From Candidatus Aenigmatarchaeota archaeon (GTDB taxonomy: Archaea; Aenigmatarchaeota; Aenigmatarchaeia; PWEA01; JACQIF01): 64,000 nucleotides of DNA. The notes under the pieces were generated by a model that did not search any database, had not been told where the DNA came from, and worked only from the letters and a program-made list of their open reading frames with translations. The stretch spans positions 472,298 to 536,297 of the forward strand of contig CP066684.1 of assembly GCA_016432325.1 (NCBI GenBank), given 5' to 3'. Shown in pieces: positions 44,032-46,053 of the stretch. Every line of letters begins with the position of its first letter. Position 1 is the first letter of the stretch. The translations under genes were made by a program, and so were the position numbers.

Positions 44032-44100
44032 TCAGGCGAGGTCATATCCACTGTTCTGAAGTAGTGCCTTCGATCTTTTAACTTCTTTTATCTTGGCCAT
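44032..44100 (-). CDS. Candidate RiPP precursor peptide, 22 aa (MAKIKEVKRSKALLQNSGYDLA)
   Basis: ATG 21 nt from a palindromic TATA box, mirroring the divergent SagB gene; no homology evidence. Confidence 0.5.
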   Translation of the reverse strand: MAKIKEVKRSKALLQNSGYDLA

Positions 44101-44121
44101 ACGGTTTCTTGCATCTGCTTC

Positions 44122-44131
44122 TATTTAAATA
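44122..44131. promoter_or_regulatory. Palindromic bidirectional TATA box
   Basis: tatttaaata is self-complementary and centred between ATG 44100 (-) and ATG 44151 (+). Confidence 0.6.
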
Positions 44132-44150
44132 TCTCATAACATCGTTTTGC

Positions 44151-45197
44151 ATGCTAAGAAGCGGCTCCTTTCTTTGCATGAGACTGGACGAGGGAGGCCG
44201 TCTCTTACTCGAAGATTTTATATCGAAAAGGGCGTTTCGCTGCACAGACCGACTCATAGACATGCTTGTCTTTTGCCATAGGCCGAGGAACATTGCCGAG
44301 ATACGTATTTTCATGAAAACCCAGCTCGGTTTACGCGGGGCCGAAGGAGAACAGTTTTTAAGAGAACTTATAGAGAAGGATATTATTCGGCCGGGAGCAA
44401 AAGACGAAAGGGCTCTGAAAGCGTTCTCTATGTGGAAAGGATACAACTGGCGGGAGCCATTTCTGCACAATCTTTTGACAAGGGACTATCCGTTCGTTGA
44501 GCGCGGTGTTGGATACTCAGAAATGGACAAAGAGACAATGATAAACTACACCAAGAAGAGCAAAATGCCGAACGCATACAAAGAGTACAAAGGCGTCTTG
44601 AAAATAAGGCTGCCTCCATGCTCTACTGAATTAGGAATGTTCCATGAAGCCATAGAGGGAAAACTATCTCGTAAATCGGAAAGGATGACGTTGACGTCCC
44701 TATCAGATATTCTGTTCTATACGTTTGGAAAGGTAGCCGAACGTCAAACGCTGCCATGGGGGAAGTATATCTTGAAAACAAGCCCGTCGGGAGGCGCGAG
44801 GCATCCCACGGAAGCATATGTCTATGCTTCCGAGGTAAGCGGTTTGAAGAAAGGAATCTACCACTATTCTGTGAAGGACCATGCTCTCGAGGTTTTGGAT
44901 GGGGTAAGACGTGAGACACTGGAGGCCGCCATTCCAGAGACCACCAAGTCTGATACCAAAGCCATCGTCTTCCTAACTTCCCTTTTCGCAAGGAATATGT
45001 GGAGATACAGAGAACCTAGAACATTTCGTACACTATTCTTCGACGCGGGACATGTCATACAGACTCTACAACTGGTAACCGAATCGCGTGGTTTTGACGT
45101 CGAGTTACGTCAACCCTTCAGTACACAGAAGTTGGAATCCTGCCTTGGGCTTGATATGTATGCGGAGGGGGCAATCTCATATGCCGTCATTAAGTAA
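44151..45197 (+). CDS. SagB/ThcOx-type peptide dehydrogenase (nitroreductase fold) with RRE-like N-terminus
   Basis: KTSPSGGARHPTEAY, GIYHYSVKDHALE, WRYREPRTFR, DAGH; N-terminal strands-then-helices region ending LRELIEKDII. Confidence 0.85.
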   Translation: MLRSGSFLCMRLDEGGRLLLEDFISKRAFRCTDRLIDMLVFCHRPRNIAEIRIFMKTQLGLRGAEGEQFLRELIEKDIIRPGAKDERALKAFSMWKGYNWREPFLHNLLTRDYPFVERGVGYSEMDKETMINYTKKSKMPNAYKEYKGVLKIRLPPCSTELGMFHEAIEGKLSRKSERMTLTSLSDILFYTFGKVAERQTLPWGKYILKTSPSGGARHPTEAYVYASEVSGLKKGIYHYSVKDHALEVLDGVRRETLEAAIPETTKSDTKAIVFLTSLFARNMWRYREPRTFRTLFFDAGHVIQTLQLVTESRGFDVELRQPFSTQKLESCLGLDMYAEGAISYAVIK

Positions 45198-46053
45198 ATA
45201 TTCTGTTCTGTCGCGATTCTCGCGTCTTATGACGGTTGCGAACAAATGGTACCTGCGGGATCCGGTATCCAACCATGAGACCGAGGTGCCCATCAGATTG
45301 TTGAGGAGCACGATTGGTAAACTCAGCGCTGCCGGGAAGATTCCGCTGTCTACAAAAAGTCCACGAGACCGATGGATCGCACACGACTGGTTCCATTCTC
45401 TCCACCTATATGCCGAGATGAGAGGAGGCTATCCCAATGGATCAAATGGAAATGATGGAGGCATCCGATTGTTTCCAAACAGACAGCGCGACAAGAATGT
45501 CGTTAGGTTGCCGTCTCCTAGGTTGCTACCTCTCATGGACACGGCAGATGTTCTATTAAAAAGACGAACGTGGAGGGCCTTTAAAGCGGATATGATAACA
45601 TCTCGCGATCTGTCGGACGCCCTCTACTATGGCGCCAGACGCTATCCGCTCCGGTCACTCGACGTATACTTGATTATTTTGCGCGTAGACAACATACCAC
45701 GAGGAGTATACCGTTATAATGCGGATGCGCACCTCTTGGAAACTGTGAGGGAAGGGGATTTCACGGATTCAATATACAACGCGAGCCAGAGACAATATGT
45801 AGATAACTCAGCTGTCGTTTTCCTGATTTCCGCAGATTACAGCAGAGCAATGCGTGATAATAGAAATGCGGCCGCGTATTCAAATATTATGATTGACGCG
45901 GCCAGGCTGGCCCATCTCATTATTCTGACGGCTACTTGTCTAGGCCTAAAAAACTTTTTAACGCCTGCTATAAAGGAGAGTATAACAGACGACCTGTTGA
46001 CCTTAGACGGCTGGTCTAAAGGCTCCCTGTACCTTGTCGCGATAGGCAGATGA
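45181..46053 (+). CDS. Degenerate SagB/nitroreductase-family protein
   Basis: VRLPSP...LLKRRTWRAF, GVYRYNADAHLLE, DAARLAH...TCLGL; lacks the PSxG loop; overlaps the upstream stop. Confidence 0.8.
   Translation: MPSLSKYSVLSRFSRLMTVANKWYLRDPVSNHETEVPIRLLRSTIGKLSAAGKIPLSTKSPRDRWIAHDWFHSLHLYAEMRGGYPNGSNGNDGGIRLFPNRQRDKNVVRLPSPRLLPLMDTADVLLKRRTWRAFKADMITSRDLSDALYYGARRYPLRSLDVYLIILRVDNIPRGVYRYNADAHLLETVREGDFTDSIYNASQRQYVDNSAVVFLISADYSRAMRDNRNAAAYSNIMIDAARLAHLIILTATCLGLKNFLTPAIKESITDDLLTLDGWSKGSLYLVAIGR

Follow-up and report, generated by a model that had tools for sequence, protein, structure and literature searches.

Which product is made, and against which target, when two overlapping nitroreductase-fold genes and a 22-residue open reading frame (ORF) stand between a tRNA-Arg(TCT) gene and leuS, the gene of leucyl-tRNA synthetase (LeuRS)? 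The question is raised by a locus of Candidatus Aenigmatarchaeota archaeon contained in a 64,000-nucleotide stretch of DNA (assembly GCA_016432325.1, contig CP066684.1, positions 472,298 to 536,297 of the forward strand), which was analysed as a whole and is referred to below as the window; its genome is a single contig of 874,869 bases, 90.14% complete. In our assessment, these genes probably constitute a minimal cluster of the tiarin family of peptides made by the ribosome and modified after translation (RiPPs), carried on a 2.2-kb island between tRNA-Arg(TCT) and the sole leuS, and LeuRS is predicted to be both the target of the cluster and its partner in self-protection. A preliminary description of the locus, made from the sequence by itself, had singled out the right objects and its outline is largely correct, whereas its interpretation is partly supported. 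The features on which the argument turns are the following.

43666..43977, minus strand: tRNA-Arg(TCT) gene with three insertions (D-loop, anticodon loop and T-loop), left boundary of the island
43978..46209, no strand: island of low G+C, an insertion that separates tRNA-Arg from the native leuS
44032..44100, minus strand: precursor peptide gene, 22 aa, MAKIKEVKRSKALLQNSGYDLA, from the ORF scan, conserved beside the closest homologues
44122..44131, no strand: palindromic TATA box TATTTAAATA, read from the sequence
44151..45197, plus strand: gene A, TfxB-type, with an N-domain like a RiPP recognition element (RRE; about residues 1-95), a linker and a SagB-type flavin mononucleotide (FMN) dehydrogenase domain
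45181..46053, plus strand: gene B, TfxC-type, with a short, poorly modelled N-terminal part and a nitroreductase-fold domain
46210..49017, plus strand: leuS, archaeal-type LeuRS (TIGR00395, 896 bits; NF008957, 1102.7 bits), with an alternative start at ATG 46177

The enzyme pair and the short peptide

The region 43978-46209 stands out by its composition, with a G+C content of 47.0% versus 55.9% genome-wide. Among 4,364 windows of this size taken across the genome, only 1.4% have a G+C content as low, in keeping with the AT-rich island that had been seen between tRNA-Arg and leuS. The ORF scan finds in it the 22-aa ORF and the two overlapping nitroreductase-fold genes, A and B, and these genes diverge from one palindromic TATA box, the peptide gene being read on the minus strand and the A-B pair on the plus strand. 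Specifically, TATTTAAATA is separated by 21 nt from ATG 44100 of the short ORF and by 19 nt from ATG 44151 of A, that is, by the nearly equal spacings of about 20 nt reported at the outset. Judging from this position, the element is likely a bidirectional promoter, from which both the peptide gene and gene A would be expressed as leaderless transcripts. A YcaO enzyme, said to be missing from the window, was looked for with PF02624 across the 874,869 bases of this 90.14%-complete genome and gave 0 matches, and the same search was positive in 5 of 14 control genomes.

Gene A can start at TTG 44109, ATG 44151 or ATG 44178 and ends at 45197; ATG 44151 is the better start, because the first strand of the homologues aligns with residues 2-13 of the resulting protein. 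The product carries KTSPSGGARHPTEAY, NMWRYREPRTFR and FFDAGH, the SagB motifs already recognised by eye, matches the Pfam Nitroreductase family with an E-value of 3.8e-8 and scores 101.3 bits against the SagB model TIGR03605, above the cut-off of 78.4. Moreover, all the residues that are invariant in the alignment of its family are kept. The AlphaFold model of A, with a mean predicted local distance difference test score (pLDDT) of 86.8, comprises an N-domain, a linker and a nitroreductase-fold domain. In the N-domain of the model, DSSP assigns four strands (residues 2-4, 8-12, 18-22 and 27-31) followed by three helices (34-41, 48-58 and 63-75), the same succession that had been read from the letters. 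Among solved structures, the best whole-chain match is ThcOx (Foldseek E 6e-19, TM-score 0.72). In particular, VIA-align superposes 315 residues with Z 23.2 and a root-mean-square deviation of 3.6, placing residues 1-348 of the model on residues 116-465 of the ThcOx chain, and, given that 315 of the 348 residues are aligned, no fewer than 62 residues among the first 95 of A are superposed on ThcOx. The N-domains of ThcOx are presumably RRE-like, and the language-model clusters nearest to residues 1-96 of A carry the ThcOx families PF22767 and PF18679, and the MftB family, with scores of 0.80-0.85 that are to be taken as leads only. As modelled, the N-terminus of A is RRE-like by fold. By sequence, the best match to A among solved structures is 3eo7 (E 3.3e-21), which has two SagB-like domains per chain.

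For gene B two starts are available, GTG 45088 and ATG 45181, which correspond to overlaps with A of 110 and 17 nt, respectively; the latter is the better one, because the alignment with the closest homologue starts there. Its product matches PF00881 (Nitroreductase) with an E-value of 4.9e-8, so that both overlapping genes carry the fold attributed to them. It contains LLKRRTWRAF, hence the RRT motif, and no PSGG loop, as first described, and its TIGR03605 score of 62.2 bits stays under the cut-off of 78.4. The protein is 37% identical over its full length to the B protein of the archaeal locus L012 (E 1e-64), and can be aligned with 31 B-type proteins, of which it keeps the invariant residues W65, W70, R128, P262 and A263. 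In its AlphaFold model (pLDDT 81.9) the block-averaged values exceed 90 for nearly all of residues 110-290 and fall below 50 for residues 1-20 and 88-98, and the best Foldseek matches are 3eo7 and ThcOx. When the two proteins were modelled together, the complex reached a score of 0.91, versus 0.00 for the best of 3 controls, with contact agreement of at least 92% among the runs and a partner pLDDT of at least 84; among solved complexes 58 of 80 reach that mark, among mismatched pairs 2 of 110. The prediction agrees with the heterodimer that had been proposed and suggests that A and B can pair like a nitroreductase dimer, which implies no preference over homodimers. The high score may also reflect likeness to solved dimers, because nitroreductase dimers are well represented among solved structures.

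Relatives of the two proteins differ in number. In a large protein collection, A has 231 relatives at E ≤ 1e-3, from archaea and bacteria, conserved over their full length and mostly named 'SagB/ThcOx family dehydrogenase', and B has 11 only. A scan of species-representative genomes returned 333 relatives of A, from which the best 80 loci were used, their ORFs of at least 70 aa being clustered by BLASTP. An A-type gene followed by a B-type gene occurs in 39 of these 80 loci, and the genes downstream of the pair are variable: some loci have a true ThiF together with an exporter of the MatE or ABC type, others a YcaO or more SagB-like genes. Within the phylum of the window, A is rare, being matched at E ≤ 1e-20 in 5 of 371 genomes, in 3 of them over the full length. 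A metagenome scan contributed 7 loci, none above 39% identity, and no close relative of the peptide; the trifolitoxin producer was absent from the 25 records listed of 100 SagB/ThcOx-annotated plasmid records.

According to the accessible part of a preprint (bioRxiv 10.64898/2025.12.02.691738), on which all that is said here about tiarins depends, these RiPPs are defined by the TfxB/TfxC pair of FMN-dependent dehydrogenases and are found in seven bacterial and two archaeal phyla. The same source assigns TfxB and TfxC to IPR020051 and IPR000415, describes them as the sole cluster enzymes with RRE domains, treats YcaO, ThiF and methyltransferases as accessories, which some operons do without, and mines genomes for a TfxC-type paralogue within 2.7 kb of a TfxB homologue. 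Gene B, overlapping A by 17 nt, falls inside this distance. Two organisms named in the preprint, Paenibacillus sp. PAMC 26794 and P. sediminis, are both in our list of loci (L088 and L047, respectively) and, because both are among its loci, the family collected here is the family of the preprint. The family relationships of A and B are established, and by them the two genes match the TfxB/TfxC pair. IPR020051 and IPR000415 themselves are presumably the SagB-type and the general nitroreductase signatures. In place of the system without precedent that had been proposed, the locus presents the TfxB/TfxC pair and the precursor core of the tiarins.

Tiarin precursors are 23-65 aa long, are encoded mostly just upstream of the pair and have a conserved Gln (bioRxiv 10.64898/2025.12.02.691738). 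The short ORF of the window contains KALLQ, which includes this Gln. The claim that it belongs with the enzymes is borne out by the two closest archaeal homologues of A (loci L012 and L002, with 41-42% identity over the full length), both of which have a similar short ORF beside them. In L012, the peptide MKIKQIPKRKALLQGGCGYSSEKPR is encoded 23 nt upstream of the A gene and preceded by an AAGGAGG site; in L002, the peptide containing MKIDIREMPRRKALLQGGCGG is encoded on the opposite strand, about 0.8 kb upstream of A and beyond a methyltransferase gene. The segment common to these peptides, K-I-x…[KR]-x-K-A-L-L-Q, corresponds to residues 3-15 of the window peptide. When a profile of the L012 and L002 peptides was run against all stop-to-stop frames of at least 15 codons in the whole genome, the window frame came 1st of 25,951 (E 0.16), and this result carries weight because the top match of the genome adjoins gene A. 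Upstream of bacterial and candidate phyla radiation (CPR) pairs, 34 candidate precursors, selected by eye out of a mechanical list, have an A-L-x-Q-like motif at their end, and this 'AL-x-Q' motif is common to the window peptide and the candidate precursors of bacterial clusters. The residue that follows Gln among the candidates can be G, N, T, Y, H, M, D, E, Q, F, S or A; being so variable, it makes the Asn of the window peptide no exception. Consistent with the family pattern, the leader is predicted to span approximately residues 1-11, and Leu14-Gln15 to be the pair that is modified and defines the target. The earlier division into a basic leader and an NSGYDLA core is therefore not retained, as it severs the conserved Leu-Gln, the pair that is modified and sets the target in the family. 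The window peptide has two Ser, no Cys and no Thr, hence no Cys/Ser/Thr-rich core.

Among the other loci, the Legionella and Chlamydia-related clusters (L019, L027, L034, L045, L073 and L081) have B proteins that lack the WRY motif and precursors that all end in LQ[HS]DQ, directly at the C-terminus; they are a distinct subgroup.

leuS as neighbour and predicted target

Trifolitoxin inhibits arginyl-tRNA synthetase, and genes for GNAT proteins and aminoacyl-tRNA synthetases (aaRSs) are enriched near tiarin pairs; whenever an aaRS is present in a cluster, its specificity corresponds to the residue preceding the conserved Gln, and a second copy of that aaRS lies elsewhere in the genome in every case (accessible part of bioRxiv 10.64898/2025.12.02.691738). 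In the window, the pair is Leu14-Gln15 and the adjacent gene encodes LeuRS, which is the correspondence that the rule of the preprint describes. It recurs in L012, with Leu-Gln and a divergent LeuRS gene 62 nt away, and in L029, with Val-Gln and an adjacent ValRS. Given this Leu-Gln/LeuRS match, leuS, which the preliminary description had treated as a mere boundary, is probably part of the system.

The history of the island can be followed from its left flank. No tRNA gene is called in the window by ARAGORN (0 genes) or by Rfam (0 matches). Nevertheless, four blocks of the minus strand (43967-43958, 43902-43896, 43839-43829 and 43685-43676) are identical to the tRNA-Arg(TCT) of relatives, and, once the three insertions have been removed in silico, the T-loop one being about 143 nt long and lying between 43829 and 43685, ARAGORN recognises a tRNA-Arg(tct) for 275 of the 5,101 combinations of junctions tried. 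Because the exon blocks are exact and the spliced constructs are called, the tRNA-Arg is regarded as real, with three insertions. In relatives of the window the order is MinD, tRNA-Arg(tct), leuS, with no island and with an uninterrupted tRNA gene in the corresponding position. In particular, a divergent MinD gene lies at most 1.5 kb upstream of leuS in 6 of 11 leuS loci of the relatives, tRNA-Arg(tct) is called by ARAGORN between the two in 3 of 8, and the MinD-leuS distance is about 280-440 nt in L100, L106, L108 and L110. In L108, the tRNA ends at 1239 and leuS starts at 1504, a gap of 265 nt; the corresponding gap in the window is 2,232 nt, and the difference is the island.

A repeat search gave no convincing direct repeats bounding the island. 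Separately, the A-B operon is framed exactly by an inverted repeat of 15 nt with 87% complementarity (44119-44133 / 46057-46071), with one arm, TTCTATTTAAATATC, upstream of A and the other, GAAATATAAATAGAA, directly after the B stop; its quality is at chance level among the 12 pairs listed, and it may represent either a vestige of cassette movement or a further TATA-like box.

A comparable situation is found at L012, whose genome likewise has one LeuRS, in this case of bacterial type (TIGR00396, 909 bits). The idea that this LeuRS arrived with the cluster and displaced the native enzyme was rejected: the bacterial type is native there, and 11 of 24 relatives match it at E ≤ 1e-60, ten of them over the full length with 53-74% identity and one (G035) over the C-terminal third only, with 40%. 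In G269, a genome of the genus of L012, a 64-aa gene abuts leuS; its 68-aa homologue in L012 (E 7e-15) is about 3.7 kb away from leuS, and the stretch of about 3.7 kb holds the peptide, A, ThiF, B and C39-like peptidase genes. A homologue of A is absent from both G269 (91% complete) and G028 (96% complete), the two of the eleven that were checked. The most economical reading of these sister-genome comparisons, made with few kin, is that two independent events each placed a Leu-Gln cluster immediately upstream of leuS, a native gene present in one copy. The two insertions would differ in site, in orientation and in the type of LeuRS, archaeal in the window and bacterial in L012.

Some further observations were made at synthetase genes of other loci. 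The 62 nt between the leuS start (minus strand) and the precursor start (plus strand) of L012, positions 6830-6891, are AT-rich and contain several TATA-like boxes, a sequence arrangement which suggests that target gene and cluster are co-regulated there. In G028, the LeuRS frame (C1:580794-583451, L122) has one in-frame TAG. On a metagenome contig (L113, 2561-7747), a B-type ORF truncated at its 5' end is accompanied by an A-type gene, by an ORF of 112 aa in which an acetyltransferase-like stretch, RGIGVARKLIE, was noticed by eye, and by a 955-aa class I aaRS-like ORF; no precursor was found in this locus. Finally, L078 and L052 have one SagB-like gene each and upstream ORFs whose C-terminus reads …DTCCA, and the SagB-like gene of L078 adjoins an 'alternative ValS' gene (NF000540, 1163 bits); this looks like a different type of peptide linked to an aaRS.

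Proposed mechanism and competing explanations

The mechanism that we propose, by analogy with trifolitoxin, can be outlined as follows. From TATTTAAATA, the gene of the 22-aa precursor would be transcribed one way and the A-B operon the opposite way, in both cases without a leader. A and B would assemble into an FMN-carrying nitroreductase-fold heterodimer, in which the RRE-like N-domain of A would hold the leader (KIKEVKRSKAL), and the pair would turn the Leu14-Gln15 segment into the Gln-derived heterocyclic chromophore characteristic of the family. A GFP-like cyclisation around Gln was proposed in a 2022 structure paper (PMC8816728, accessible part). As the chromophore step would consist of cyclisation and dehydrogenation, and not of azoline oxidation, no YcaO would be needed. 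The expectation of a chemistry other than azoline oxidation, voiced in the preliminary description, probably holds, with no YcaO found and with the tiarins as family. After trimming, the Leu-bearing warhead would inhibit LeuRS in competitors or in a host cell, and the linkage to the sole leuS would provide self-protection, via a tolerant enzyme, via co-regulation or via both.

Several observations weigh against this picture. In the first place, the peptide is 22 aa long, against the 23-65 aa given in the accessible part of the preprint, its leader is basic and those of bacteria are acidic, and it lacks the Cys found in both archaeal relatives. The profile of the two archaeal peptides attains only an E-value of 0.16 genome-wide, a profile of 24 bacterial leader segments ranks the window peptide 91st of 25,951 frames (E 430), and the window frame is outside the top 6 with a four-peptide archaeal/CPR profile; it was outside the top 6 with a CPR-only peptide profile as well. 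As for the RRE on A, the part of the claim that concerns fold and superposition on ThcOx stands, while a PqqD sequence match was not obtained (0 of 26 A-family members at E ≤ 1 in Pfam). The N-terminal part of B is short and poorly modelled, and no exporter or GNAT gene appears among the 13 ORFs scanned with Pfam between 39037 and 54664. With respect to the target, no second LeuRS was found in this 90%-complete genome, other matches being partial and 28-33% identical; in G031 a Leu-Gln cluster sits on a 4.4-kb contig, away from leuS; and no LeuRS occurs in the flanks fetched for the 13 bacterial genome loci in which Leu precedes Gln. Finally, the tiarin family itself was defined from RefSeq genomes in a December 2025 preprint that is not peer reviewed, and the structure of the trifolitoxin chromophore is said to need revision (bioRxiv 10.64898/2025.12.02.691738, accessible part).

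Some of these points would also be accounted for if the locus were a decaying remnant of a transferred tiarin cluster, with ThiF, peptidase and exporter lost, B and the peptide drifting, and no product made. In fact, B does not have the four residues expected in the B-family motif WRYRHxRALR, with D226, N227, A231 and S234 in place of the R, Y, R and R that occur in 32, 35, 36 and 35, respectively, of 39 other B proteins. A frameshift as the cause of this loss was tried and rejected, the other two frames being full of stops. Moreover, the ThiF of L012 and L002 and the C39-like peptidase of L012 are missing in the window, whose only ThiF-like gene (39952-40836) is a generic MoeB/ThiF and not an orthologue of the cluster genes; the Cys of both related peptides has been lost; and a same-genus genome has no homologue, though it is 73% complete only. 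On the other hand, three intact ORFs persist in a streamlined 875-kb genome, A keeps every family-invariant residue, and B retains W65, W70, R128, P262 and A263 together with a catalytic domain of pLDDT above 90. The B proteins of Legionella and of Chlamydia-related organisms are also without WRY, but they retain the later two Arg, and they are nonetheless conserved over several genomes, and the accessible text of the preprint states that YcaO, ThiF and other accessory enzymes are absent from some operons (bioRxiv 10.64898/2025.12.02.691738). The term 'degenerate SagB', applied to B in the preliminary description, is thus mostly a trait of TfxC-type partners, and is apt in so far as this copy also lacks the B-family motif. 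On balance, we consider decay of the whole cluster unlikely, and put the chances that this particular copy is still working at about even.

A second alternative accepts a working tiarin-type system and holds that the cluster came to lie beside leuS as a side effect of insertion at a tRNA gene, and that what it makes has another target or role. tRNA genes are common insertion sites, and MinD, tRNA-Arg and leuS represent the ancestral gene order. Furthermore, leuS has genome-like G+C and its own TATA-like box, TTATTAATTA, some 20 nt upstream of ATG 46210; the residue preceding Gln is most often Leu in the sample (13 bacterial genome loci, L012 and the window); and the G031 cluster is away from leuS. 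Nonetheless, the adjacency arose again in L012 at a different site, where ARAGORN found no tRNA, with a different, bacterial-type LeuRS and in opposite orientation, and the Leu/LeuRS match is what the rule in the accessible part of the preprint predicts, so that an accidental neighbourhood appears quite improbable. The explanation first offered, an unknown YcaO-independent RiPP class with its own chemistry and an NSGYDLA core, is favoured by the lack of a YcaO match in the genome, by a basic leader unlike bacterial precursors and by an unusually divergent B, but it is very improbable, since enzymes, gene order, peptide motif and aaRS link all fit the tiarins as described in the preprint, and the conserved part of the peptide is KALLQ and not the C-terminal tail.

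Returning to the tiarin-type cluster directed at LeuRS, the locus would extend the tiarins to an archaeon whose genome is among the smallest and would be their smallest version in this analysis, consisting of a 22-aa precursor and the two defining enzymes, thereby offering a convenient minimal system for the chemistry of the Gln-derived chromophore. What goes beyond the accessible text of the preprint is the 875-kb archaeal host, the minimal gene content, the single-copy LeuRS and the repeated insertion at the native leuS. Consequently, a question arises that also goes beyond that text, namely how a producer with a single copy of the target synthetase protects itself, and the two independent insertions upstream of a native leuS would suggest selection for linkage to the target gene. 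A broader proposal, which we hold to be possible though doubtful, is that in ultra-small archaea Leu-Gln clusters are tied to the only LeuRS, which is itself the immunity determinant, and serve as the weapon of an 875-kb symbiont. If true, immunity would be achieved by LeuRS tolerance or by co-regulation from a shared promoter region, and three genes would provide a two-enzyme tiarin synthase, one subunit being catalytically reduced, aimed at the LeuRS of host or competitors. If the peptide is active, this would represent a rare defined antibiotic weapon in a genome-reduced archaeon.

Two neighbouring genes deserve a separate mention. The gene at 39952-40836 (minus strand) was considered as the missing ThiF of the cluster, and rejected although it clustered with the ThiF genes of other clusters: its likeness to the ThiF of L012 is a generic, Rossmann-type one only (E 7e-4), and its best NCBIfam models, all MoeB/ThiF-family adenylyltransferases, are every one under the cut-off. 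Its product of 294 aa has a CxxC pair and is extended at the C-terminus by about 90 aa, and no other ThiF-like gene is present in the window. The gene at 41234-42352 (plus strand) encodes a protein in which four CBS domains are joined to a domain of the ribosome-hibernation S30AE type.

Comparison with known systems

Known systems resemble the locus in different respects. ThcOx oxidises azolines formed by a YcaO-type heterocyclase. Like A, this cyanobactin oxidase (PDB 5lq4, 8pz5) is built of a winged-helix-like N-domain followed by a nitroreductase-fold FMN domain; unlike A, it has one extra N-terminal domain, its identity to A is 19-20%, and no YcaO was found in the genome of the window. The SagB/McbC subunits of microcin synthetases (McbBCD, PDB 6gos) share with A the TIGR03605 domain and the fold, with McbC reaching a Foldseek E-value of 1e-10 and Z 15. 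These complexes combine them with an E1-like protein and a YcaO on cores rich in Cys, Ser and Thr, in contrast to the window, where no YcaO was found and the peptide is devoid of Cys and Thr. A third relative is Ava_2154 (PDB 3eo7), a putative nitroreductase with two domains in tandem, in which unlike SagB-like halves pair, as proposed for A and B. It differs from the locus described here in being a single fused chain, with no RRE-like domain and unknown function.

The closest counterparts are the trifolitoxin (tfx) cluster of Rhizobium anhuiense T24 and the other tiarins, as far as they are described in the accessible part of the preprint. With respect to them, the locus of the window has three genes only and is without a TfxD-type pump, a YcaO, a third dehydrogenase and a GNAT. 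Its precursor is divergent and not co-directional, is shorter than theirs and has a basic leader, and its aaRS is single-copy and native, not an extra copy borne by the cluster. In addition, its B is without the B-family motif and its host is an archaeon with an 875-kb genome. What the locus has in common with these systems is, in turn, the defining arrangement, that is, a precursor with a Gln beside a TfxB-type and then a TfxC-type gene. YcaO is unnecessary for the family-defining step in the tiarins and was not found in the genome of the window, and in both the residue that precedes the Gln matches the adjacent aaRS.

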